41,085 nucleotides of DNA, from the IMG/VR virus record IMGVR_UViG_3300034069_000436, positions 1-41,085 of that record; one strand, 5' to 3'. The notes below the pieces were generated by a model. That model did not search any database. It was not told where the DNA came from and saw only the letters and a list, made by a program, of their open reading frames with translations. Of the stretch, positions 2,161-21,667 are shown one piece after another; within the stretch, counting starts at the first letter, position 1; every line of letters begins with the position of its first letter. Made by a program: the position numbers and the translations under genes. Origin of the DNA: a virus.

Positions 2161-4382
2161 TTATCCAAATCTCCACCCTTGCGAAACGATGCAATCTTGG
2201 CCTCATGCGCCTCCGAGGCGTGTTGCACCCGCTGCTCATGCTCTCGCCCGGCAATCTCCAGCTTCACCTGCAATTCCCGTTCTGCAAGCGCGGCATCGGC
2301 GTTCTGCTGCCTCACCGCCAATTCCGCCTGTGCTTGCTGCTGCTGCTCGGCAAGGGCCTGCTTATGCTGCTGGGCGGCCTCGGCAAGACTGGCCGCATGG
2401 CTCGCCTTTTGCGTCTCCAGATCGCTTGCCGCCTGCTGTGCCTGCTGCTGGAGTTGCAGCTTGCTCATTGCCTGTTCGTGGTCCTGCTGCGCCTGCTGTT
2501 GCGCCAAGGCAGCCTTGCCCTGTGCCTCAATCGCCTTGGGGTCCTGCTTGGGCGGCTGACTCGCTGCTGCCTGTTGTGCTTCGGGAGTTGAAGGGTCGGT
2601 ATAGAACTCGTTGGGCGTCCCCAGCCCCATATCCCGAATGGCACCGTCGCGAGCCCGATACATGTTTTCAGGCGTCACCAGCGGCGATCCATTCTGAAAT
2701 AGCCCGTTCTGGTCCTCAATGAGCAACTGCCAATTCTGGATGCGCTGCGCCTTTTGGCCCGTCCCCAGTCCAACCCGCACCTCAACGGGCATGTCACCAT
2801 CCCATGCAGTAGGGTTCGCCTGCCGGTATTCCCCGTCTAGGCGCAGCATGATCGGATCGCCCTCCGCAATCATCAGCCGCATCTTCTTGGCAAACAGACG
2901 CCCGCAAGCGCCGCCGGCCTGCCGGGCAACATACTCCTCCATCTGTTGGCCTTGTGCCTGCATCATGGCAGTGCCGGTCGCCGTCTTGCTGATCGCGTCA
3001 GCGTCTAGACCTTGGTTGAGCCGGGTAATGCCCGTGCGGCTTTCACGTTCGCCGACAAGAAATTGGAGGAGACCGAGTCCTTGAGATGGATCAAAAGCGT
3101 CGGCGATAGCTTTGATCTCGCCGCCACCTTTGGTGCGAATAAGCACGCCGGGACCAGCCGTAAGCCAATCGTCGATGGTGCTTTCGCCAATGGCATTTTC
3201 GTCAATCTGCCCGCGTGGGCGATTGGTCAACATCACGCCGTCAATCGTCTGACGCGTCACCATCGTCCGCAACGCCTGAATGTCGGCTACTTTCTCGGCA
3301 AGGCTCTGGCCAACCATTCGATGCGCGCGAGGGAACGGGCAGAAAACGACAAACGGCTGCTCGTCAACCTCGCTGACTTCAAAAATTACGTCACCAACGC
3401 GCAAAACCTGCAACAGTTCGGCAATGCCATCGCCGTCACGGTCAGCACGGACATATTCTTCCAACAGCGTAACCTCGGCGAGCGGGCCGTCATTGTCCTG
3501 CGTGTCCCAGCTCTCACCCCAACGGGCAAGCGATCTGGGATCGCCCCACCATTCGGCTGTGGAATCTGCCGGCAAGTCATCGACCATGCGCCGGTCAAAG
3601 CCCATCTCAACAAGGTCGGAACGGGTTTTCCGACTTCGCTGAGCGATGTACGCGGCATCGTCCTCGTGACGCGCCCGCTGCGAAAAGATAAATTCCTCGC
3701 TCGGTACCGGCATGTCGATGTAACGCTTGCTCGACTGCGGCGTGTGAATACTTGCGGTAAAAGTGCCGTCACCGTGATCTTGCGCACCCATTAGCTGGGC
3801 GCCAGGCCGCTCCGGGTGCAGCCCAGCCGACAGTGCCGCTAGCTGTTCGCCATCAACCGTTAGCCGCTCACGTTTCGTCCGCCGCTTGGTGACGACAGCC
3901 GTTTTCACGATGCCGATCTTTTCGATCAAGCCCGACTGGATCCAGTCAATCAGCACCTTGAGGCCATCTTGGTCGTTCATGAAAGCGTGAGAAACCGCTT
4001 CGGTGGCTTCTCGCGCTGCCTCCTCCTGGCCCGGCTGGCGGGGAACAAACTCCACAATTCGATCGCCAGCGATGAACGTGCGCGCCACGCTGATCGTCAT
4101 GTAGTCGACTGTCTCCGCTACATCGGGAACGACGACTTGGCTTTGCCCCTCAACCTCGTTGCCGAGCGGGCGAGCGTCGTAATAGTCCAGTGCCGTTGCC
4201 TGTTCCTGAGCGAGTTGCGAGTTGCGAAACAGTGAGGCTTGGTCTTCCTCGCGCTGTAGCAGCGACAGTAGCGCGGCATCGTCCATGCCAAGTTGAGCCG
4301 GCTCCGTCGAGTCCTGCTCCTCCCATTGATGCGGAAGTGGAATGTTATGCGGATCACCAAGAACGGGAATGGGAACTGTCAT
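2157..4382 (-). CDS. Portal protein
   Basis: 741 aa, downstream of terL and upstream of scaffold/capsid. Globular core followed by a long Q/A/E-rich C-terminal helix (AQQQAQQDHEQAMSKLQLQQQAQQAASDLE...), reminiscent of P22-type portal barrels. Confidence 0.8.
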   Translation of the reverse strand: MTVPIPVLGDPHNIPLPHQWEEQDSTEPAQLGMDDAALLSLLQREEDQASLFRNSQLAQEQATALDYYDARPLGNEVEGQSQVVVPDVAETVDYMTISVARTFIAGDRIVEFVPRQPGQEEAAREATEAVSHAFMNDQDGLKVLIDWIQSGLIEKIGIVKTAVVTKRRTKRERLTVDGEQLAALSAGLHPERPGAQLMGAQDHGDGTFTASIHTPQSSKRYIDMPVPSEEFIFSQRARHEDDAAYIAQRSRKTRSDLVEMGFDRRMVDDLPADSTAEWWGDPRSLARWGESWDTQDNDGPLAEVTLLEEYVRADRDGDGIAELLQVLRVGDVIFEVSEVDEQPFVVFCPFPRAHRMVGQSLAEKVADIQALRTMVTRQTIDGVMLTNRPRGQIDENAIGESTIDDWLTAGPGVLIRTKGGGEIKAIADAFDPSQGLGLLQFLVGERESRTGITRLNQGLDADAISKTATGTAMMQAQGQQMEEYVARQAGGACGRLFAKKMRLMIAEGDPIMLRLDGEYRQANPTAWDGDMPVEVRVGLGTGQKAQRIQNWQLLIEDQNGLFQNGSPLVTPENMYRARDGAIRDMGLGTPNEFYTDPSTPEAQQAAASQPPKQDPKAIEAQGKAALAQQQAQQDHEQAMSKLQLQQQAQQAASDLETQKASHAASLAEAAQQHKQALAEQQQQAQAELAVRQQNADAALAERELQVKLEIAGREHEQRVQHASEAHEAKIASFRKGGDLDK

Positions 4383-4567
4383 CAGCTACCCTGTCCAACC
4401 GCAAACTGGTCCAGCATCGCCAGCGGAAACATGATCCCGGCGCCGGAAGGACCAGACCCAAGCATCAGCCGATTGGCGTCGGTGTGCGCGCCATCGGGAA
4501 TGGCGAAGAAGGTCCACACGCCGTCCTTGCGCTCGGCTAGGATGTTGAGAGTGATGTCGGGGGTCAT
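4382..4567 (-). CDS. Hypothetical protein
   Basis: 61 aa ORF, coupled by overlaps to both neighbours. Confidence 0.5.
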   Translation of the reverse strand: MTPDITLNILAERKDGVWTFFAIPDGAHTDANRLMLGSGPSGAGIMFPLAMLDQFAVGQGS

Positions 4568-4791: not shown

Positions 4792-6290
4792 ACCACTCCC
4801 CGGCGCATGTTGCTGTAGTCGATCGGCTTGGCAGCCACCGGAGCAGGGCGGATTGCAGCCGTTTCAAACGACTTGTAGCCGTGACTGAACTCATCATGCA
4901 GGGCGTAGGATTTGAATACGCCCAACTTGTCGTCCCATGCCTTGCGGTAATTATCCAGACACTGGACCAGACGCGCGCAACGCTCTTTGTCGATCCACAC
5001 ACTTGCGAGGAAAGCTCGGCTAGCATCAATGCCGGCCTGCTCGCTCTCGATCCGCTTCACAACCTGGACCGGCTTGATACCGCTACGCTCGGCATGAACA
5101 CGCCGGGGTTCAGCCGTATCAGTCAGCGAGCGCTGGTCCGCGTCATGTGGCATGTAATGACGAGAGTAGTTATAGCCCTTTTCGGTCAGGACGCGCGCGT
5201 AATGTGCGAAACCCTCTCCGCTGTTTTCGTAGTAGTCGATTGCCCGGCGCTCAAACCCATGGTCCTGCCAGAACGTGATTGTCATGCTATCGTTCAGGCC
5301 AAGGTCCCACGTCGTGTAGACTGGTGCGTCCATAATCGGGATGCGGCAGAGGCGTCCTTCACGCCTCATCTTCGACATCTCGCGAGAAAAGTAAGCGCCT
5401 TCAACCGAAGCCTCAAACGCTTCCTGTGCTGTCGATGGGAACTCGCGGCGCATATCGTCGCCCTGCTGCTCGGCCTTCTTAACGTACCAAGCCCGCTGAT
5501 CGCGAGTTAGGAAAATGCCATGGTCGGCTTCAAGCTTGCGGAAGTAGTCCTGCATTTCTCGCGGCTCATCGACTGCTTCGGCGAGGACGTATTCGGGGCT
5601 TGTCCACCACGGCAGAAAGTGGAACTTAAAATCGAGAGCGGTCAACGCTTCGCCTTCCTCTGCCCGCTTTCGCGCTGCTTCAGCCATGTCGTAGAAGTGC
5701 CCAGCTTGGCCCTCTGCCGTGCTTTCTACCGTAATCGTCTGCCCCGCCTGGACGGTGTTGAAAGCGCCGGAACGAACCTCCCGCGCTCGCTCAGGGGCTT
5801 TTGCGCACAGTTTACCGTACTCACTCACATGCAACCGCTGGAGCGTACCGGAGCGAAGGGAAGTGCCCACTCGAATGGACGAGCCGTTGTTGAAACGGAT
5901 GCTTTTGGCGCTGTCCTGCTCAGCCGAGCGAACCCGCCGGAAAGCCGCTGGCAAATTGTCGTAGGCAAACTTGATCTTGTCGGCGAAGAACGCTTCGGCG
6001 TCAGTTAGGTTGTGAGCGATAACGCCGGCAGACAGGTTAGGCGTGAACAAGCAATCGTCCAGCATATCCAGCTGAACGTAGGTTGTGATGCCCTTCTGCC
6101 TAGCCTTGAGCACGATATCCATGCCGTGGCGTTCGTCAGCAAACTGGCGCTGGTCGTCGTTCATTCGAAACGGCACGACGGCGCCGAACTTGTCTTTAAT
6201 CGAATAGAACCCGCCCTCAAGCCGGCTCCGCTTCGTAGGGTAGCGGGTTCGGACACGGCCGAAGAACTCCTGCTCGGCTGGGCTAAGCAT
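4788..6290 (-). CDS. terL: Terminase large subunit
   Basis: Track ORF 4788..6368. Preferred start is MLSPAEQEFF at 6290, overlapping the terS stop. ATPase-like N-terminal half (DIVLKARQKGITT, LHVSEYG) and nuclease-like C-terminal half (TTWDLGLNDSMTITFWQ, HYMPHDA). Confidence 0.85.
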   Translation of the reverse strand: MLSPAEQEFFGRVRTRYPTKRSRLEGGFYSIKDKFGAVVPFRMNDDQRQFADERHGMDIVLKARQKGITTYVQLDMLDDCLFTPNLSAGVIAHNLTDAEAFFADKIKFAYDNLPAAFRRVRSAEQDSAKSIRFNNGSSIRVGTSLRSGTLQRLHVSEYGKLCAKAPERAREVRSGAFNTVQAGQTITVESTAEGQAGHFYDMAEAARKRAEEGEALTALDFKFHFLPWWTSPEYVLAEAVDEPREMQDYFRKLEADHGIFLTRDQRAWYVKKAEQQGDDMRREFPSTAQEAFEASVEGAYFSREMSKMRREGRLCRIPIMDAPVYTTWDLGLNDSMTITFWQDHGFERRAIDYYENSGEGFAHYARVLTEKGYNYSRHYMPHDADQRSLTDTAEPRRVHAERSGIKPVQVVKRIESEQAGIDASRAFLASVWIDKERCARLVQCLDNYRKAWDDKLGVFKSYALHDEFSHGYKSFETAAIRPAPVAAKPIDYSNMRRGVV

Positions 6291-10814: not shown

Positions 10815-11384
10815 CTATCCTAGCGTCACACCTTCGGCAAGCACGGCATTGACCGCCATAAGCATTACGATCTCGCATCCACGCGGCGAGCGAGCGCCCT
10901 TTCTTAGATTGCACGTCCGATGCATCGCCACCCGGTTGTTGCGATCTTTTCCGCCTAGGACACGGGGTAGCACGTGATCGAACGTTGCACGCAAGGGGTC
11001 GTCATGACTGCCCCCAAACTCAAGCTGTTCTCCACACGCCGCGCAACGCATGGCTTGGGCCTTTGCAATGCGGAACAGCAGTGACTTATGGGCTAGGTAA
11101 CGTTGGCGCTTTCGAGCCGGCATTATGGAGCAGATGGGCTTTTTGCCGCCGGCTTCCCAAGCCGCATAGCGCGCGGCGTCTCGTTCATCCGACAAGCCAA
11201 GCGAACGAGCCTCGGACTTTGTCAGGTTGGTAAGGCTATAGTCCAGCGGTGAAACGACAATAGCTGGGCGCTTAGAAAGGCTATTTACATACGAACGACT
11301 TTTCGGTTGGCGCGGTTTGGCGCGAAGTAGCACCGTCATACGCTTAGCGCACTCTTCCAAGGTCATTGGTCCTTGGCCTTTCAT
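10815..11384 (-). CDS. HNH endonuclease
   Basis: 189 aa. CAACGEQL...ATFDHVLPRVLGGKDRNNRVAMHRTCNLRKG gives the Cys pair plus the H-N-H core. Confidence 0.8.
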   Translation of the reverse strand: MKGQGPMTLEECAKRMTVLLRAKPRQPKSRSYVNSLSKRPAIVVSPLDYSLTNLTKSEARSLGLSDERDAARYAAWEAGGKKPICSIMPARKRQRYLAHKSLLFRIAKAQAMRCAACGEQLEFGGSHDDPLRATFDHVLPRVLGGKDRNNRVAMHRTCNLRKGARSPRGCEIVMLMAVNAVLAEGVTLG

Positions 11385-14947: not shown

Positions 14948-15234
14948 GCGCTCCCAACATCGCATGCGTCCTTGCTGACGCGGTTGGTCCGCTTCTTGCC
15001 GGCCTAACCGACGCCATGGGCTGCAAAGCCGACGTGTCTTGGTTTTCCGCCTCCGATCGCTGTCATGCGTTCTGGAGCGTTAACCTGCACGATCATGATC
15101 GATGCTTTAGCGGCAACGACATTGACAGCCCGAGCCGCGCCTTGATGAAAGCTAATGCCCAGCGGCAGGAATGGGAGGAGCAGCAGACTCGTGGCCAGAA
15201 ATTGTTGGCCCAGGACGCACAGGTGTCGGCGTGA
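14944..15234 (+). CDS. Hypothetical protein
   Basis: 96 aa, with an ATGA overlap upstream. Confidence 0.55.
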   Translation: MSAPNIACVLADAVGPLLAGLTDAMGCKADVSWFSASDRCHAFWSVNLHDHDRCFSGNDIDSPSRALMKANAQRQEWEEQQTRGQKLLAQDAQVSA

Positions 15235-15920
15235 ATAAGCCTCACATTACCTACCACGCCGACTTTGACCAAGGTTCGGAGCAATGGCTGGCGGCGCGTT
15301 GCGGGCTGCTCACCGCGAGCGAGATGAAGCTGATCCTTACGCCGACGCTCAAGGTCTCCAACAACGATAAGACACGCCAGCACGTTTATGAGATCGCTGG
15401 CCAGCGTATCACCGGATATGTCGAACCGCACTACATTGGCGACGACATGCTGCGTGGTCACGAAGACGAGGTGCGCGCACGGCTTGCCTATGCCGAAAAG
15501 TTTGGCGAGGTCACGGAGTGCGGGCTGGTCACGAATGACAGTTTCGGCTTTACCATAGGCTATTCGCCCGACGCTCTTGTTGGCAATGGCGGCCTGATCG
15601 AGTGTAAGTCGCGTCGGCAAAAGTATCAGGTGCAAACGATTATTGCTGGCGTGCCGGACGAGCACGTTTTGCAGCTTCAGACCGGTTTGTTGGTCACCGA
15701 GCGAGCGTGGATTGACTACGTGTCATACTCGGGCGGAATGCCGATGGCGGTGATCCGCGTCGAATCTGACGCAGAAATGCAGACAGCTATTGTTGCGGCG
15801 GCGACTGACTTTGAGCAGCGCGTTACCGATGCGATCAGTGATTACCAATCCGCCCTTTCGTCTGGCCGCCTTCGCTGGTGCCCGACCGAGCGCGTTATCG
15901 AACAGGAAATGCATCTATGA
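15231..15920 (+). CDS. YqaJ-like (lambda Exo-type PD-(D/E)xK) recombination exonuclease
   Basis: Track ORF 15171..15920. Start at the GTG at 15231 (GTGA overlap). Motifs: FDQGSEQWLAARCGLLTASEM, GYSPDALV, LIECKS. Confidence 0.8.
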   Translation: MNKPHITYHADFDQGSEQWLAARCGLLTASEMKLILTPTLKVSNNDKTRQHVYEIAGQRITGYVEPHYIGDDMLRGHEDEVRARLAYAEKFGEVTECGLVTNDSFGFTIGYSPDALVGNGGLIECKSRRQKYQVQTIIAGVPDEHVLQLQTGLLVTERAWIDYVSYSGGMPMAVIRVESDAEMQTAIVAAATDFEQRVTDAISDYQSALSSGRLRWCPTERVIEQEMHL

Positions 15921-16561
15921 GTGACATGTCTGCCGTCATTGTCGCCAAGAGCGATCAGTGGAACGCTGACGATTTCGTCAACGGCGCCCGCACCTTCACC
16001 ATTGAGGACGTTTCGATCCGCCCCGGCACAGAACAGCCGGTGCAGATCAAGCTCGCCGGCAGCAACAAGTTCTTCCGTCCGTGCAAGACCGTCAGCCGTG
16101 TCTTGGTCGCGGCTTGGGGCGCGGATGCCAATGCATATCGTGGCCGATCGCTAACGCTCTACACCGACCCGGCGGTTCTCTGGGGTGGCATGAAGGTGGG
16201 TGGCATCCGGGTCAGCCACCTGTCAGACCTGACGCAGCCGCTTGTCATCGCCCTTCAGGAAAAGAAGGGTAGCCGCAAGATGACGACCGTGCAGCCGCTC
16301 AAGGTCGAGTCCGCGCAGTCTAACGGCAGCGACTTGCTCACGATCGACCAAGCGCGCGCGGATATCACCAACGCGGCAGACCTGGGCGATTTGCGCCGGT
16401 TGTGGTCGCGCCGGGCAATGGCGCCGTTCCGCGATGAACTTCAGGAAGCGCTCGACATTCGCAAGGAAGAACTGTCCAACATCGACGCTCGCGAAGGCCG
16501 TTCCGACGACCAACATGGCGACCAACACGACGGCGAGACCATTGAGGAAAACGGCCAATGA
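15917..16561 (+). CDS. Hypothetical protein. Its position suggests an ssDNA-binding or annealing partner of the exonuclease, but this is unproven.
   Basis: Track ORF 15878..16561 trimmed to MSDMSAVIVAKSDQWNADDF (ATGA overlap). Beta-rich N-terminal half and acidic tail. The functional suggestion rests on synteny only. Confidence 0.35.
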   Translation: MSDMSAVIVAKSDQWNADDFVNGARTFTIEDVSIRPGTEQPVQIKLAGSNKFFRPCKTVSRVLVAAWGADANAYRGRSLTLYTDPAVLWGGMKVGGIRVSHLSDLTQPLVIALQEKKGSRKMTTVQPLKVESAQSNGSDLLTIDQARADITNAADLGDLRRLWSRRAMAPFRDELQEALDIRKEELSNIDAREGRSDDQHGDQHDGETIEENGQ

Positions 16562-16707: not shown

Positions 16708-17239
16708 CCTGCTGTCCGCACTTCGCGAGCCGCCCGTCGTGGGTCGGTTCTACATGGTCCCGGTCATCCGCGACTACCCGCTGGGTGGCAAGCTCGGCAC
16801 CTGGCCTGTGATCGGGCCGAAACATTCGGACATCGATTTCCTCAATTTCCGAGACGAGCATTATCATGTCGATGCGCGGTTCGTCACCGCTGCCCAAGAG
16901 CGGGCCATCACTGTTGGCGGACAACGTAGCTTAGAGGCGGTTGTCGGCAGTTGGCCGCTTGCATCTTACAGGCACGAGTTGCCGAAGGGCAGGCCCGCAC
17001 TGGCTCGGCTGAAGTGTCGCCGCAGCGCTTATGGCTATGCCTATGGTCATCAGCCGGCAATCAAGAAGCTGCGTGAGCATTACGGCGACCCGGCCGAGCC
17101 TATCCGCCTCGCCGATAGACGCCTGCTCTGCCCGCACCGCAAGGCCGATCTGTCCAGCTTTGCTCCGGGCGATGATGGCCTCGTGATTTGCCCGCTTCAC
17201 GGCCTGCGCGTGCGTTGTGCTCAAGGCCAGACCTCATGA
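16700..17239 (+). CDS. Protein with a C-terminal Rieske-type [2Fe-2S] ligand motif
   Basis: 179 aa. CPH-x17-CPLH (CPHRKADLSSFAPGDDGLVICPLH) fits the Rieske pattern CxH-x(15-17)-CxxH. Confidence 0.55.
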   Translation: MADLLSALREPPVVGRFYMVPVIRDYPLGGKLGTWPVIGPKHSDIDFLNFRDEHYHVDARFVTAAQERAITVGGQRSLEAVVGSWPLASYRHELPKGRPALARLKCRRSAYGYAYGHQPAIKKLREHYGDPAEPIRLADRRLLCPHRKADLSSFAPGDDGLVICPLHGLRVRCAQGQTS

Positions 17240-17268
17240 CCCGTCAACCACAACCAAGGGAGGGCGCG

Positions 17269-17955
17269 ATGCCCGTTGAGAAGTTCGAAGTCCGCAACCG
17301 CTGGTCCAGTCGCATCCAGTTCACTGCCGAGATCACCTGCGCGCCCGACGCCACGATCGGCGTGAAGTTGGGGCTGGCAGTAAGGTGGGCGAGAAAGAGC
17401 GGTGCCGTCCTGCGCGGTGCCGACCTGAGCGGTGCCGTCCTGCGCGACGCCGTCCTGCGCGACGCCGTCCTGCGCGACGCCGACCTGCGCGACGCCGTCC
17501 TGCGCGACGCCGACCTGAGCGGTGCCGTCCTGCGCGACGCCGTCCTGCGCGACGCCGACCTGAGCGGTGCCGTCCTGCGCGACGCCGACCTGAGCGGTGC
17601 CGTCCTGCGCGGTGCCGTCCTGCGCGGTGCCGACTGGCTCCCGCGTATCACCAACATTCACCAGTCGATCTACAATGCCGCTCGCCAGGAAGGCGCCCTC
17701 GACATGGCATCGTGGCACCGTAATGGCTACTGCGGCACGACGCATTGCCGGGCTGGATGGGCGGTGGTGCTGACCGGCGAGGGCGGCCGGGTGCTTGAGG
17801 GCATCTACGGCACCAACGCCGCTGCTGCGCTGATTTATCAGGCCAGCGACCCAAAGCTGGAGCGTATCCCTAACTGGATCGCGTCAAACCAAGACGCGCT
17901 GGACGACATGCGGATGAAGGCGGAAGCGGAAGCTGCCTCTGCGGTCTCCTCATGA
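17269..17955 (+). CDS. Pentapeptide-repeat protein with a Cys/His-containing C-terminal domain
   Basis: Track ORF 17188..17955. Start at MPVEKFEV, preceded by AGGGAGGgcgcg. It carries 16 consecutive [G/D]A[V/D]L[R/S] pentapeptides. The C-domain motif is WHRNGYCGTTHCRAGWAVVL. Confidence 0.8.
   Translation: MPVEKFEVRNRWSSRIQFTAEITCAPDATIGVKLGLAVRWARKSGAVLRGADLSGAVLRDAVLRDAVLRDADLRDAVLRDADLSGAVLRDAVLRDADLSGAVLRDADLSGAVLRGAVLRGADWLPRITNIHQSIYNAARQEGALDMASWHRNGYCGTTHCRAGWAVVLTGEGGRVLEGIYGTNAAAALIYQASDPKLERIPNWIASNQDALDDMRMKAEAEAASAVSS
17401..17637 (+). repeat. In-frame 15-bp tandem array, about 16 units
   Basis: Units are GGTGCCGTCCTGCGC, GACGCCGTCCTGCGC, GACGCCGACCTGCGC, GACGCCGACCTGAGC and GGTGCCGACCTGAGC, counted consecutively from 17401. 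Several adjacent units are 15/15 identical. Confidence 0.95.
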
Positions 17956-17987
17956 CCCCTCCCATGGATAGAGGCGAGGGGCGGGAG
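17952..17987 (+). repeat. Junction module copy J1
   Basis: atgacccctcccATGGATAGAGGCGAGGGGCGGGAG. The last 24 nt are identical to J2 18791-18814. Confidence 0.9.
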
Positions 17988-18758
17988 ACGCGCTCCGGCA
18001 TCATTCGTGACATTGATGGCGTGCTGCACGTCGTCGCGCTCTCCGGTGGTCACGACAGCACCATCCTGTCATTGCTGCTGAACGAGCGCGAGCCGCGTCC
18101 GTACCTTCATGTCTGTACGCCGACTGGCGATGAGTTGCCGGCAATGTTTGAGCATTGGAACCGGCTTAGCGGGATGCTCGGCAGCCGTATTATGCCGATC
18201 ATGGCGGGAAGCCTCAAAGGCGTCATCAGCCAAAAGGGGTGTTTGCCCAATTTCCGCCGGCGGTTCTGCACCCGCGTTTTGAAGATTGAGCCTTTCCGCG
18301 CTTTCATGGCTGCACAGGCCAAGGATGGGCCGGTCGTCTCCTATGTGGGTCTGCGCGCTGATGAGCCGGGACGGGCTGGCGGCGCTTACGACAACATTCC
18401 CGGCGTCACAATTCGTTACCCTTTACGCGAATGGGGCATGGGCGAGGACGAGGTTCAGGCCGGCTTGGCTGAGCGCGGCGTCAAGTGCCCCGATCGGACT
18501 GACTGCGGTCTGTGCTATCACCAGCGCATCGGCGAGTGGTGGGAATTGTGGAAATACCATCCCGACCGGTTTGATGATGGGGTAACGATTGAACAGCGCT
18601 ACGGGGAAACGTTTCGCACGCCGGGGCGCGATAGCTGGCCCACGTCGCTGAAGGAAATGGGCGAACGCTTTGAGGCCGGCGACAAGCCGAACACCAGCCT
18701 CAATCGCATGGCTCGGGAGCGTCAGCAAACGGGCTCTTGTCGCGTGTGTTCGCTATGA
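17952..18758 (+). CDS. PP-loop ATP pyrophosphatase, PAPS-reductase-like family
   Basis: 268 aa. VVALSGGHDSTILSLLL is the SGGxDS PP-loop. ATGA overlaps at both ends. Confidence 0.75.
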   Translation: MTPPMDRGEGRETRSGIIRDIDGVLHVVALSGGHDSTILSLLLNEREPRPYLHVCTPTGDELPAMFEHWNRLSGMLGSRIMPIMAGSLKGVISQKGCLPNFRRRFCTRVLKIEPFRAFMAAQAKDGPVVSYVGLRADEPGRAGGAYDNIPGVTIRYPLREWGMGEDEVQAGLAERGVKCPDRTDCGLCYHQRIGEWWELWKYHPDRFDDGVTIEQRYGETFRTPGRDSWPTSLKEMGERFEAGDKPNTSLNRMARERQQTGSCRVCSL

Positions 18759-18814
18759 CCATCCCCACCCATTCAGCAGGATCAGACACCATGGATAGAG
18801 GCGAGGGGCGGGAG
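18755..18814 (+). repeat. Junction module copy J2 (longest form)
   Basis: atgaccatccccacccattcagcaggatcagacaccatggatagaggcgaggggcgggag. It shares its 5' block with J3 and its 3' block with J1. Confidence 0.9.
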
Positions 18815-19606
18815 GGTGCGCAGCTTCGTGTGCTGTCGCTGTTTGCTGGCATCGGTGGCTTCGACTTGGGTCTTGAGCGGACCGGCGAATTTCGCACGGT
18901 TGCCTTTTGCGAGATCGATAAACGTTGCCGGCACGTGCTGGCGAAAAACTGGCCTGGAGTGCCGATCTATGAAGACGTGCTCGACCTTAGTGCCCAGCAT
19001 CTCGCCGCAGCAGGAATTGCCATTGATGTCATCTGCGGCGGGTTCCCATGCCAGAACATCAGTCTTGCCGGACGAATGGAGGGGATTGGTGGCGTCAAGT
19101 CTGGACTATGGCAGCACTACCTTCGTCTCGTCGAAGAAGTCCGTCCGCGCTGGGTCGTTGTCGAAAACAGTCCCGTCCTTCGCTCTCGCGGATTGGAAAT
19201 CATGCTCGGGCAGCTTGCTGCGATCGGGTATGATGCGGAGTGGCACTGTCTACCCGTTAATGCCTTTGGCGCGCCTCACCGGCGGGATCGCCTCTGGATT
19301 GTGGCCTACCCCGCTGGCGACCGAGACGGGCTTCCGCCGCTCCAGATTTCCACAGGGTGGGACCAGTCTAAGCACCGCGCTTGGTGGGATACCGAACCCG
19401 CTGTGGGTCGAGTGGTTGATGCGGTTTCCGCCGAACCACACCGCCTTGCCGAGCTCGGAAACGCCGTCTGTCCGGTAATTCCGGAGGAGATTGGCCGGGC
19501 AATTCTAGACGATGCGTTTGACCGCGCTGTCCGGCGTCCTTGCCCTGGTTGTGACCGACCGAACTACGACCATCATTGGAATTGCGCCGCGCAGGTCGCC
19601 GCATGA
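18755..19606 (+). CDS. DNA (cytosine-5)-methyltransferase, compact form
   Basis: Motif I LSLFAGIGGFDLG. Motif IV GGFPCQNIS. Motif VI VVENSP. Motif VIII HRRDRLWIV. Motif X GNAVCP. The variable region is very short. An alternative start is at 18791 (MDRGEGRE, AGGA 10 nt upstream). Confidence 0.85.
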   Translation: MTIPTHSAGSDTMDRGEGREGAQLRVLSLFAGIGGFDLGLERTGEFRTVAFCEIDKRCRHVLAKNWPGVPIYEDVLDLSAQHLAAAGIAIDVICGGFPCQNISLAGRMEGIGGVKSGLWQHYLRLVEEVRPRWVVVENSPVLRSRGLEIMLGQLAAIGYDAEWHCLPVNAFGAPHRRDRLWIVAYPAGDRDGLPPLQISTGWDQSKHRAWWDTEPAVGRVVDAVSAEPHRLAELGNAVCPVIPEEIGRAILDDAFDRAVRRPCPGCDRPNYDHHWNCAAQVAA

Positions 19607-19658
19607 CTCCCACCCATCTAGCAGGATCAGACAACATGGTAGAGCGAGAGGCGCGAGA
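19603..19658 (+). repeat. Junction module copy J3
   Basis: atgactcccacccatctagcaggatcagacaacatggtagagcgagaggcgcgagag. It aligns to J2 with a few substitutions and two small indels. Confidence 0.85.
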
Positions 19659-20166
19659 GATCTTGGCGCAAGCTTATGAGCGGGCGAACCTGACCTGCCC
19701 GGCCACCGACATTCGTGCTGGCAACAAGGTAGATTGGGTCAGGGAAGCGGTTGCCTTGGACGCTATCTCCGCCGCCCTCCACCCCACCCAGCCTGTAGGT
19801 GAGCCCGAAGGATGGCGGGAGGCCCACTCTGACGATCTGGCCGTTGATAGGTTCGCGGCAAAGATGAAAGCGAAGCTGGCGCAGGCTCGCGACAAAGGTC
19901 GCGGTGGCTGGGACGACCCGGAGCAGTGTGGCCCAACCATTCTGCTGCCAATGCTGCACGATCACCTCGCTAAGGGCGACCCGGTGGACGTGGCGAATTT
20001 TGCTATGATGCTGGATCACTACGGCGCGTCCACAGCCCCTTTCCCCACGTCGAACGTACAACGAGCCCGCGTCAAATGTGATCGGCTAGGTTGCGATTGG
20101 GCCAACGGTCGTGCCGCCCTTGCATCCCTGCCCACCAATGATGCCACGGAGACATTAAATGGATAG
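19603..20166 (+). CDS. Hypothetical protein. The middle region faintly resembles MazG-like all-alpha NTP-PPase helices but lacks the acidic metal motif.
   Basis: Track ORF 19576..20166 trimmed to MTPTHLAGSDNM (ATGA overlap). ...KLAQARDKGRGGWDD...HDHLAKGDPVDVANFAMMLDH. Confidence 0.5.
   Translation: MTPTHLAGSDNMVEREAREILAQAYERANLTCPATDIRAGNKVDWVREAVALDAISAALHPTQPVGEPEGWREAHSDDLAVDRFAAKMKAKLAQARDKGRGGWDDPEQCGPTILLPMLHDHLAKGDPVDVANFAMMLDHYGASTAPFPTSNVQRARVKCDRLGCDWANGRAALASLPTNDATETLNG
20128..20143 (+). repeat. DR1 left copy (ctgcccaccaatgatg)
   Basis: Perfect 16-nt match to 20417-20432. It encodes LPTND in the 3' end of gene 19603..20166. Confidence 0.9.
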
Positions 20167-20452
20167 CCAATGGTCGGAAATTGCCGCCAACGGTATCATT
20201 CACGCTGCTACAATGGCTTTTCAGGCTTGGGAGCAAAACTCATACGAGTTCACGCGTCCTTGCGTCCTGTTCAAGCCCGTATTGTCAAGAGACGGAAATC
20301 AGTGGTGCGCTTTGCTAGGCGACAATCTGCAAGAAGGTATCGCAGGTTTTGGAAACACGCCTTATCTTGCAATGTATGCTTTTGACAAAGCGTTCAATAC
20401 AGAAACCATCGTCCCTCTGCCCACCAATGATGAGGATCGCAGCCGTGGGTGA
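20159..20452 (+). CDS. Hypothetical protein in a low-GC cassette
   Basis: 97 aa. It looks visibly AT-richer than its neighbours (by eye near 50% GC). It is bracketed by the two DR1 copies. Confidence 0.6.
   Translation: MDSQWSEIAANGIIHAATMAFQAWEQNSYEFTRPCVLFKPVLSRDGNQWCALLGDNLQEGIAGFGNTPYLAMYAFDKAFNTETIVPLPTNDEDRSRG
20417..20432 (+). repeat. DR1 right copy
   Basis: Perfect 16-nt match to 20128-20143. It encodes LPTND in the 3' end of gene 20159..20452. Confidence 0.9.
20432..20452 (+). repeat. DR2 left copy (gaggatcgcagccgtgggtga)
   Basis: 18/21 match to 20688-20708. Contains the upstream stop and an embedded GTG start. Confidence 0.85.
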
Positions 20453-20708
20453 TTATCAGCTTTTTGTGTACCCGCCGTTTCGTGCTGCGCCGCGTGTGCT
20501 GATGCACGTCGATGATAGCGGAGAGCTTCCAGACGGCCGGAGGTGCGGCCATTTCGTCTGCCGCAAGTGCGGTTATGCCGAATGGCGAGCGGCGGGACTA
20601 ACCAACCAGCGACGCGGACTGCCTTGCCCCACTTGTAACGGCAAAGGCCAAAAAGTTCGCGCCCTCCACCCCAGCACCGCAGGACAGGAGGATCAGAGCC
20701 GTGGTTGA
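20445..20708 (+). CDS. Zinc-ribbon protein
   Basis: Track ORF 20349..20708. The GTG at 20445 is chosen by analogy with the paralogous DR2 junction at 20701. ATGs at 20427/20430 are alternatives. Motifs: CRKCGYAEW...CPTCNGKG. Confidence 0.55.
   Translation: MGDYQLFVYPPFRAAPRVLMHVDDSGELPDGRRCGHFVCRKCGYAEWRAAGLTNQRRGLPCPTCNGKGQKVRALHPSTAGQEDQSRG
20688..20708 (+). repeat. DR2 right copy (gaggatcagagccgtggttga)
   Basis: 18/21 match to 20432-20452. Contains the stop of the Zn-ribbon gene and the GTG start of gene 20701. Confidence 0.85.
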
Positions 20709-21174
20709 GAGCGAGTTCCAATCCATCGTGGGGCAAGAGGCGATCGACTTGCTTGTCGATCTGTGCGGGCCGGGCTCATCGCAATCCGGAACCAACTGTC
20801 GGGTGGTCGAGGATCACTTGAAGCAGTTTGCCCGCGCCATTGCCCCCAAGCCTCCCGCCGTCAGCAGCGAGAGCGCAGGGGTGGAGGATGATCGGTTGTT
20901 CATTGCCGCTGCGTTGGATTTTTCGAACGCCGGTCCTAACCACTTTAGCCCTGGCTTCCTTCAGTACCGCGATCTTGCACTTGCCGCCTCCCGCGTAAGT
21001 CTCGCCGCCCAGCCCACCACAGAGCAGCCGGGCGGGGTGACGCGGGAGCGCGAGCGCTGCGCCCGGATCGCGGAGAACTTCACCCGCGCCAGCCGGGATT
21101 GGGTGCCTGACAGCCTGTGGGACAACATCACCAAGGGCATTGCTGCGGCCATTCGAGGGGAGGGTGGCAAGTGA
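20701..21174 (+). CDS. Hypothetical protein
   Basis: 157 aa, with a GTG start inside DR2. Confidence 0.55.
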   Translation: MVESEFQSIVGQEAIDLLVDLCGPGSSQSGTNCRVVEDHLKQFARAIAPKPPAVSSESAGVEDDRLFIAAALDFSNAGPNHFSPGFLQYRDLALAASRVSLAAQPTTEQPGGVTRERERCARIAENFTRASRDWVPDSLWDNITKGIAAAIRGEGGK

Positions 21175-21314
21175 CTCTAGCGGTATACCATCATCCCTGC
21201 GGCAAGCGAGAAGTCTTGCTCCCGTGGGAGACGATGCAGCCCTGCGCCGCGTGTGACCTTCACCGCAGAATGGTCCGTTGGGGTCTCGTTAAACGCTGGG
21301 GTGAACGCGCATGA
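21171..21314 (+). CDS. Hypothetical 47-aa Cys-containing protein
   Basis: GTG at 21171 (GTGA overlap, GGGGAGGGTGG upstream): (M)TLAVYHHPCGKREVLLPWETMQPCAACDLHRRMVRWGLVKRWGERA. Confidence 0.45.
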   Translation: MTLAVYHHPCGKREVLLPWETMQPCAACDLHRRMVRWGLVKRWGERA

Positions 21315-21667
21315 CCGACCTCAACCAGATCGCGGAGCTGCGGGGGCTGGTGGCGAAGGCGACCCAAGAAAACTTGGCGGATGGCGGCCGGTATTTCGCC
21401 GACAGCTACACCGACCTTACCCGCTGCCGACATGAAGAGATCGGCGAGTACCAAAACCGGCACGACGGCCCTGCCATCGAAGCGCTTTGGAATGCTCGTC
21501 ACGCCCTGCTGGATGCAGCGGAGAGGGTGGGGCGGCTGGAGGAGGCGGTTCGTGCCTATTGCGACGCCTTCGATGCCGGCACTGGAACGGTCTATGTCGA
21601 GCCGCTGATGCGCTCCCTCCTCACCGACACCACCCATGACACCGCTGAACACGGAGAAGGGGAATGA
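21311..21667 (+). CDS. Hypothetical protein
   Basis: 118 aa, with an ATGA overlap upstream. Confidence 0.55.
   Translation: MTDLNQIAELRGLVAKATQENLADGGRYFADSYTDLTRCRHEEIGEYQNRHDGPAIEALWNARHALLDAAERVGRLEEAVRAYCDAFDAGTGTVYVEPLMRSLLTDTTHDTAEHGEGE

Follow-up and report, generated by a model that had tools for sequence, protein, structure and literature searches.

Direct repeats at gene junctions in a tailed-phage early operon are probable seams of recombinational gene exchange

Short conserved boundary sequences, or linkers, form part of the modular theory of phage evolution (refs 21 and 22 in Pope et al. 2011, PMC3029335). In that model, short conserved sequences are located at gene boundaries, the same one flanks unrelated genes in different phages, the identity of the linkers is far above that of their flanks, and exchange by general or homeologous recombination has been proposed. 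We describe here an array of genes of this kind in IMG/VR virus record IMGVR_UViG_3300034069_000436, which was analysed over its whole length of 41,085 nt (the window). Within the array, two short direct repeats, DR1 and DR2, bracket a gene encoding a 97-amino acid (aa) protein (the cargo gene) and an adjacent Zn-ribbon gene, respectively. We propose that these repeats probably mark seams at which the genes of an early, translationally coupled array were exchanged by recombination. At the level of sequence, the window displays every feature of the boundary-linker model. It differs from that model in two respects: its linkers lie within coding sequence, where they overlap the stop codon, ribosome-binding site and start codon of a coupled array and in several cases fall inside open reading frames (ORFs), and they are common to phages without other detectable similarity.

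Other described systems share part of this pattern. Mycobacteriophage Island3 has an inserted gene, gene 68, in which the C-terminus of its upstream neighbour (18 residues) recurs by way of a repeat of ~50 bp (PMC3029335). As in the window, this small gene is absent from a relative (Brujita) and copies the C-terminus and the DNA of its upstream neighbour; the authors proposed recombination between short repeats and left the direction, insertion or deletion, open. The repeat in the window genome is shorter (16-23 bp), and the shared residues number 5 within the genome and 11 when counted against gene A of the relatives (see below). The window further differs from Island3 in its identified donor family, in the foreign composition of its insert and in neighbouring genes that share the pattern. 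Short repeated motifs are likewise a feature of the PeSL cassettes of T4-type phages (Arbiol et al. 2010, PMC2839356; PMC4122927), where they flank small, dispensable genes of a plastic region. It is at these motifs that relatives differ by insertion, deletion or replacement, and recombination between adjacent copies has been proposed to drive this. PeSLs, however, are intergenic early promoters with stem-loop terminators, whereas the window junctions have neither. No promoter-like site was present at the junctions at 17.9-21.3 kb (10.6 kb contained 4 such sites where 2.4 were expected, all of them off-junction), no terminator-like site was detected at the junctions, the junctions had no Rfam match, and their RNA fold z-scores ranged from -0.8 to +1.2. 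For want of a promoter-like or terminator-like site and of a stable fold, assignment as a PeSL cassette was rejected. In Cluster K mycobacteriophages, start-associated sequences reportedly place one 13-bp motif over many genes and are thought to act in expression. Like these, the window has a conserved motif directly upstream of several start codons, but its core is found at four adjacent genes only, its linkers are longer and varied, and genes appear to be exchanged at them.

The window is a complete tailed-phage genome of 41,085 bp with terminal repeats, and it encodes a portal, a large terminase, a primase and an HNH endonuclease (10815-11384). A rightward early/accessory operon extends from ~12.3 to 22 kb, of which the 17.2-21.7 kb portion consists of tightly packed genes. 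Among annotated phage records none resembled this region except for the methyltransferase gene. Two relatives that lack the 97-aa gene were central to the comparison: L016, which is the full form of a 6.2-kb viral contig (L003), and L014, a 59.6-kb contig (record G001). Their uninterrupted junction is referred to as the empty site. The features at the locus are as follows.

Gene A, 19636..20166, plus strand: 176 aa from the ATG at 19636, with an alternative upstream ATG at 19603; a phrog_8298-like domain at its centre.
DR1-left, 20128..20143, plus strand: gene A's 3' end as far as the left join; the alignment with the empty site stops exactly after ...CCAATGATG.
Putative inserted segment, 20144..20416, plus strand: its own Shine-Dalgarno (SD) sequence GGAGA (20148-20152) and ATG (20159); the lowest-GC segment of the genome.
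Cargo gene, 20159..20452, plus strand: 97 aa.
DR1-right, 20417..20432, plus strand: probable duplicate of the gene A 3' end; the cargo ORF reads LPTND in the frame of gene A.
DR2-left, 20432..20452, plus strand: probable ancestral junction, with SD GAGGA, GTG at 20445 and TGA at 20450-52; 21/21 identical to L016 and L014.
Zn-ribbon gene, 20445..20708, plus strand: 87 aa, CxxC...CxxC.
DR2-right with its upstream flank, 20662..20708, plus strand: SD AGGAGGA, GTG at 20701 and TGA at 20706-08.
Gene D, 20701..21174, plus strand: 157 aa, matching no known family.

The two copies of DR1 (CTGCCCACCAATGATG; 20128-20143 and 20417-20432) are identical at 16 of 16 positions, and their likeness continues for ~7 nt more upstream if a 2-nt indel is allowed (C[A/G]TCCCT(CT)GCCC). 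The copies of DR2 (20432-20452 and 20688-20708) agree at 18 of 21 positions; each holds GAGGA followed 8 nt on by a GTG start (20445 and 20701) and an overlapping TGA. Both repeats, including the stop codon and embedded GTG of DR2, had been located correctly in a preliminary description of this DNA. That description also had two unrelated proteins end with LPTND. Both do contain these residues, but neither ends on them: the 97-aa protein continues for 6 residues (EDRSRG), and in gene A, DR1-left is followed by 7 codons (ATETLNG*) derived from the leader of the insert. Exact local direct repeats (60-1500 nt apart, with two tandem arrays left out) were counted across the genome. Two of at least 16 nt were observed where 0.03 were expected, and eight of at least 14 nt where 0.48 were expected; five of these eight lie within 17.9-21.3 kb.

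The empty site was found in both relatives. In the closest of them, L016 (L003), whose shared segments are 85-93% identical to the window at the DNA level, gene A ends ...ARAALASSPTNDEDRSRG* on the DNA cgcccaccaatgatgaggatcgcagccgtgggtga. DR1 (15/16) is here joined directly to DR2-left (21/21) and the 97-aa gene is absent. The same unbroken junction in L014 closes a gene A that is only 35% identical at the protein level, and cargo is missing from G001 altogether. Gene A in these relatives ends ...(S/P)PTNDEDRSRG*. A joint alignment located the breakpoints: the left copy in the window agrees with the empty site over gene A's 3' end as far as ...CCAATGATG (20143), and the right copy agrees with it from CTGCCCACC (20417) through ...GTGGGTGA (20452). 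The gene that follows DR2-left is the Zn-ribbon gene in the window, a gene for a CxxCxGxG protein in L016, and a DUF1643-like gene in L014. At the other end of the Zn-ribbon gene, a further contig, L148, starts with DNA that is 100% identical to positions 20662-20692, and a different gene or N-terminus then follows the DR2-right junction there. The preliminary description had suggested a search for other cargo adjacent to these repeats; at both copies of DR2, relatives carry different genes downstream. Its picture of the empty site held in part, since a gene A ending ...PTNDEDRSRG* on fused DR1 and DR2 was present in two relatives, but in no relative was the junction followed directly by the gene that starts at 20701.

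The 97-aa gene is compositionally foreign. Its GC content is 0.497 and its third-position GC content (GC3) 0.51, against 0.57-0.69 and 0.59-0.79, respectively, for its neighbours. In a sliding-window profile, its 257-nt core (GC 0.482) was the lowest interval genome-wide (z = -3.2), and all intervals at or under GC 0.482 overlapped this gene, which substantiates the earlier remark that DR1 flanks an AT-richer gene. The cargo belongs to a widespread, uncharacterised family with 145 relatives and no Pfam domain. The core of this family is conserved to about residue 80 (...AFDKAFN), and the tails beyond it differ in every member; the cargo tail LPTNDEDRSRG falls outside the conserved core. DNA homology to the nearest member (L141) begins at ~20148, the cargo gene's own SD sequence, and ends at 20398 with ...GCGTTCAAT (77% mean column identity over the whole alignment). 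The insert would thus have come with its own ribosome-binding site and start codon, and the last 11 codons of gene A with the GTG...TGA overlap would have been acquired at the junction. An AF2 model of the protein had a mean pLDDT of 86.8, with residues 1-81 confident and the tail (82-97) at 57-66. The predicted fold has a long helix and a beta-beta-beta-alpha core within residues 1-81, followed by the low-confidence, junction-derived tail. Fold searches with this model gave weak dsRBD-like or HicB-like matches only. No Pfam or PHROG enzyme match and no nuclease or recombinase fold was found, and the cargo does not encode an enzyme able to move it.

Relatives of the 97-aa gene were also seen between repeats elsewhere. 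In L001, an unrelated, lower-GC viral contig, a relative of the 97-aa gene lies between the copies of a 41-nt direct repeat (725-765 and 1001-1041; 88% identical) that covers the last codons of the upstream gene, the SD sequence, the stop and the start, so that both proteins end AAHGIKE. Two gene positions downstream in the same contig, a 23-nt repeat (1323-1345 and 1988-2010) brackets a 222-aa gene. A third relative of the 97-aa gene, in L002, is bracketed by a 13/14-nt repeat (AATGACTGACyTTA; 3928-3941 and 4158-4171) with an ATGA stop/start overlap. Across phages, the brackets around this gene and its relatives measure 14, 16 and 41 nt.

DR1 and DR2 belong, together with three junction modules upstream (J1-J3), to one family of 30-56 nt junction linkers with the core AGGATC-N5-9-RTGG. 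A further member is located inside gene A.

J1-J3 junction modules, 17937-17987, 18764-18814 and 19609-19659, plus strand: bracket the PAPS-reductase-like gene and the C5-methyltransferase gene.
Linker island within gene A, 19775..19823, plus strand: encodes ...LHPxQPVGEPEGWREA; the point where gene A and its relatives diverge.

The core occurs four times in the genome, each time on the plus strand and at consecutive gene starts (18778, 19623, 20433 and 20689), compared with one match for the reversed pattern used as a control. Other genes in the operon have different start signals that lack the core. DR1, DR2 and J1-J3 all overlap stop and start codons. Some linkers are hybrids: J2 resembles the 5' half of J3 and the 3' half of J1, and the core of DR2-right, AGGATCAGAGCCGTGG, resembles the J type (AGGATCAGA) in its 5' part and the DR2-left type (GCCGTGG) in its 3' part. 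With a core shared between DR2 and the J modules and with such hybrids in existence, the suggestion that the DR cassettes follow the same logic as J1-J3 was upheld. The tail of the Zn-ribbon gene, from 20660, is made up of linker-like pieces and opens with a 14-nt sequence, CGCCCTCCACCCCA, that is also present in the internal linker of gene A at 19773. This internal island is 98% identical between the window and L014 over 49 nt and 100% identical between L016 and L014 over 50 nt, with unalignable DNA on either side. Islands of equal identity lie inside ORFs and away from starts at 19775-19823 and 21502-21547. Between J1 and J3, L016 has one, different methyltransferase gene where the window has two genes.

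The linkers are far better conserved than the DNA around them. L016 and L014 have five islands alone in common (32-56 nt, 94-100% identity), with unalignable DNA between them. The window and L148 share four islands (31-120 nt, 94-100% identity) separated by different genes. When the window and G001 were compared as whole genomes, the linker islands were the sole shared DNA (92-100% identity), and the two gave no match for terminase, portal or YqaJ. Individual genes are mosaic as well: gene A at its internal islands, and gene D, the C-terminal 44 aa of which are attached to another N-terminus in L148 and the N-terminal 46 aa of which are joined to an A-like domain in L149.

The other genes of the tightly packed portion of the operon are listed here.

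Pentapeptide-repeat protein, 17188-17955, plus strand.
PAPS-reductase-like protein, 17952-18758, plus strand.
C5 DNA methyltransferase, 18791-19606, plus strand.
Small Cys-rich ORF, 21171-21314, plus strand: 47 aa.
118-aa gene, 21311-21667, plus strand.

Several further observations concern the same array and its relatives. The L149 gene mentioned above (612-1370; P0123) encodes a 252-aa protein, of which one domain matches the centre of gene A with 67% identity and the C-terminus matches the N-terminus of gene D with 59% identity. Modules of A and D, which two cassettes keep apart in the window, are therefore united in a single gene there. The array pattern continues past gene D. In L148 (392-1270, compared with 21171-21667 of the window), a 192-aa P4_cII-like gene replaces the 47-aa ORF; on one side it is flanked by a 94% identical 120-nt segment (the C-terminus of gene D) and on the other by two islands, of which one (40 nt, 95%) is at the start of the 118-aa gene and the other (46 nt, 100%) inside it. 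A further linker, CCCACCACAGAGGGGCGsGACGTAGCyGCC (PTTEGRDVAA), opens two different genes in L014 (6546-6578) and L016 (6095-6127); in L014 the linker is separated from the DR1-DR2 junction by the DUF1643-like gene, and in L016 junction and linker adjoin. An exact 14-nt repeat, CTGCGCCGCGTGTG, is shared by the Zn-ribbon gene (20485-20498) and the 47-aa Cys-rich ORF (21242-21255), which may be chance or a remnant of shared origin. In L143, a temperate-looking Logan contig, junction repeats enclose an HNH-domain gene (3852-4436) and, separately, a YqaJ gene (5208-5834), namely TAGGAGTGTGTTGTGA (spanning 16 nt, with a score of 13) and AGGCCGCATAATG (13 nt).

Bracketing of this kind was also compared across phages. 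In 10 loci around the cargo family, 12% of adjacent but 1% of non-adjacent junction pairs scored at least 11, in a small and partly hand-picked sample. A scan of viral contigs with 14 nt of DR1 had returned ~120 chance matches, and this set was reused as an unselected control. Among its 120 contigs, with 509 tightly packed adjacent pairs, the corresponding values were 1.0% and 1.1%. As the enrichment vanished in unselected contigs, junction bracketing was dropped as a general phage rule, and the window array is to be regarded as exceptional rather than typical.

We envisage the array as a series of single-gene and sub-gene cassettes that would be parted by conserved linkers of 30-56 nt, each containing the end of one gene (final codons and stop) and the beginning of the next (ribosome-binding site, start and initial codons). 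A foreign low-GC 97-aa gene would have entered the junction between gene A and the gene that followed it, with two joins that overlapped by 16 nt (up to ~23 nt) of the 3' end of gene A, and this overlap would be what is now seen as DR1. On its 3' side the insert would run into the duplicated segment in the frame of gene A, taking over the original last 11 codons of A and the GTG...TGA overlap; because the insert ends on this overlap, the downstream gene would remain translationally coupled. The DR2 copies would be paralogous members of the linker family on either side of the Zn-ribbon cassette. Cassettes would be gained, lost and replaced through short-homology recombination between the linker copies of co-infecting phages, an exchange that phage or host recombination functions would assist. 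A low-GC donor is unlikely to have had these linkers, so at least one join of the first capture would have been illegitimate or based on microhomology. The overlap at DR1 is also what selection would keep, as it leaves most of gene A and the entire downstream initiation region intact. The preliminary description had read the locus as the scar of serial cassette insertion, and overall this interpretation is partly supported. It agrees with the empty site, foreign GC content and tail of the 97-aa gene between the DR1 copies, but for the Zn-ribbon gene no empty site was found. "Serial insertion" is moreover too narrow a term, for the seams serve insertion, deletion and replacement, and islands are also located in ORFs.

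Two genes upstream in the operon bear on how such exchange might be carried out.

YqaJ (lambda Exo-like) recombination exonuclease, 15171..15920, plus strand: Pfam PF09588, E = 2e-11.
Gene 3' of YqaJ, 15917-16561, plus strand: OB-fold-like product; AF2 pLDDT 87; best fold match E = 0.055 (not significant).

The presence of the YqaJ exonuclease counts in favour of recombination at the linkers. The lambda Red system recombines diverged sequences efficiently and has been proposed as a driver of phage mosaicism (PMC2327257), and the same has been said of phage exonuclease/annealing systems more generally (PMC2327257, PMC3945230). The homology that the linkers make available is short, at 30-56 nt. 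In recombineering practice, such systems work on homology arms of a few tens of bases. The product of the gene 3' of YqaJ belongs to a large, uncharacterised family (phrog_11517; 2,161 representatives). It had no Pfam or PDB sequence match, and its confidently predicted structure is a beta-barrel with helices that weakly resembles an OB-fold. On the strength of this model it could be a candidate single-stranded DNA-binding or annealing partner of YqaJ.

A number of points weigh against exchange at the linkers as the explanation. No annealing protein was identified, given that the 15917-16561 product has no significant fold match, and G001 lacks YqaJ, for which reason host or other functions might do the same work. 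The first capture was probably not driven by homology on both sides, donor linkers being unlikely, and the left join (20143/20144) has no homology to the context of the nearest relative. An arrangement without the Zn-ribbon gene was not found; the relatives instead replace the downstream gene at both copies of DR2. The Zn-ribbon protein itself has weak RING/Zn-finger Pfam matches, and a relative (P0124) is 91% identical and has the same tail, EDQSRG. Just three or four related contigs were found across all collections searched, and a degenerate linker pattern had zero matches in genome-contig and metagenome-contig collections; the phage group is rare in these collections. Finally, DR2 by itself is statistically non-significant, since local 18/21 repeats are not rare (5 observed against 1.07 expected, with a maximum of 4 across 30 simulations). 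DR2 hence does not draw its weight from its own statistics. It counts because its two copies both end on the stop codons of consecutive genes, because its bracket score exceeded those of all 171 non-adjacent junction pairs in the array in a junction-by-junction comparison, and because of the relatives.

A different account would have the 97-aa gene inserted in a purely illegitimate manner, by two homology-independent joins of foreign DNA to replicating phage genomes with a chance overlap of 16 nt, after which selection kept the working products, namely those in which the end of gene A and the translation signals downstream were undamaged; the linkers would be inert in recombination. Illegitimate recombination is the prevailing model of phage mosaicism (PMC3029335), and a compositionally foreign donor and the lack of homology at the left join are in keeping with it, as are bracket lengths that vary by phage (14, 16 and 41 nt), which fit selection on the overlap better than a defined mechanism. 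Random joins, however, should not repeatedly reuse the same short sequences, and the hybrid linkers, the five or more consecutive 30-56 nt islands (94-100%) between unalignable DNA, and the linkers as the sole DNA common to two otherwise unrelated phages are all left unaccounted for. We consider this account unlikely for the array.

The polarity of the event could also be the reverse, with the window form ancestral and the 97-aa gene lost from L016 and L014 through recombination or slippage between the DR1 copies. Deletion between 16-nt direct repeats yields exactly the empty site that was seen, so the direction of change has to be deduced by other means, and for Island3 and Brujita it was left undecided (PMC3029335). 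An earlier insertion would still be required to put a duplicate of the 3' end of gene A on an unrelated low-GC gene, the tail of which is foreign to the cargo family. In addition, the uninterrupted form is found in both relatives, including the one with a gene A only 35% identical, and G001 is entirely without cargo. The low GC content, the tail and the occurrence of the empty site in two diverged relatives thus favour, without proving, insertion over deletion, and loss of the gene from both relatives seems improbable.

Much less probable still is that the repeats are simply conserved expression signals, either an initiation or coupling element or a regulator site, and are alike for reasons of function rather than recombination. 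The linker core does contain an SD-like AGGA 8-9 nt ahead of the start codon as well as the stop/start overlap, and the junction RNAs lack structure, which is a trait of good initiation regions. But the core is present at four consecutive genes only, while other genes of the same operon use other signals; DR1 lies upstream of the ribosome-binding site, and a different one follows DR1-left; the in-ORF islands at 19775-19823 and 21502-21547 are equally identical and away from starts; and 100% nucleotide identity between phages with unrelated flanks exceeds what a ribosome-binding site needs. A role in expression is compatible with recombination at the linkers as an additional function. A dedicated mobile element (a transposase, an integron-type integrase or a homing endonuclease), with DR1 as its target-site duplication, is scarcely credible despite a foreign gene flanked by direct repeats and an HNH endonuclease (10815-11384) in the genome: the cargo product has no nuclease or recombinase fold, so that a transposon was rejected for lack of an enzyme, of terminal inverted repeats at the insert ends and of a fixed duplication length (14, 16 and 41 nt at different loci), and an integron cassette because the complete genome has no tyrosine integrase (PF00589; the control matched 14/14 genomes) and the junctions have no attC-like hairpin or other significant structure.

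Recombinational exchange at the linkers, the reading we prefer, makes the window a clean and unusually clear example of gene shuffling at such seams, a known but rarely documented route in phages. Mosaic joints in phages rarely show conserved boundary sequences, which is why mosaicism is usually credited to random illegitimate recombination. The array is a dense and unusually legible counter-example, as it offers an exact empty site, breakpoints at the base level, an identified donor family, hybrid linkers and sharing that is restricted to the linkers. It also has a functional logic, in that the copied end of the upstream gene gives the newcomer a stop/start overlap and would leave downstream translation undisturbed. 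If the linkers are preferred recombination substrates, they would be natural "recombineering arms" and a practical handle for inserting genes into this phage group. A bolder and rather doubtful extension is that selection maintains the linkers as a portable system of recombination sites, comparable to an integron without an integrase. Units of 30-56 nt would then be held near-identical across otherwise unrelated phages of one host community, and any gene between two linkers could be captured, stacked or swapped by ordinary short-homology recombination and would automatically join a translationally coupled operon of DNA-modification or anti-defence cargo.

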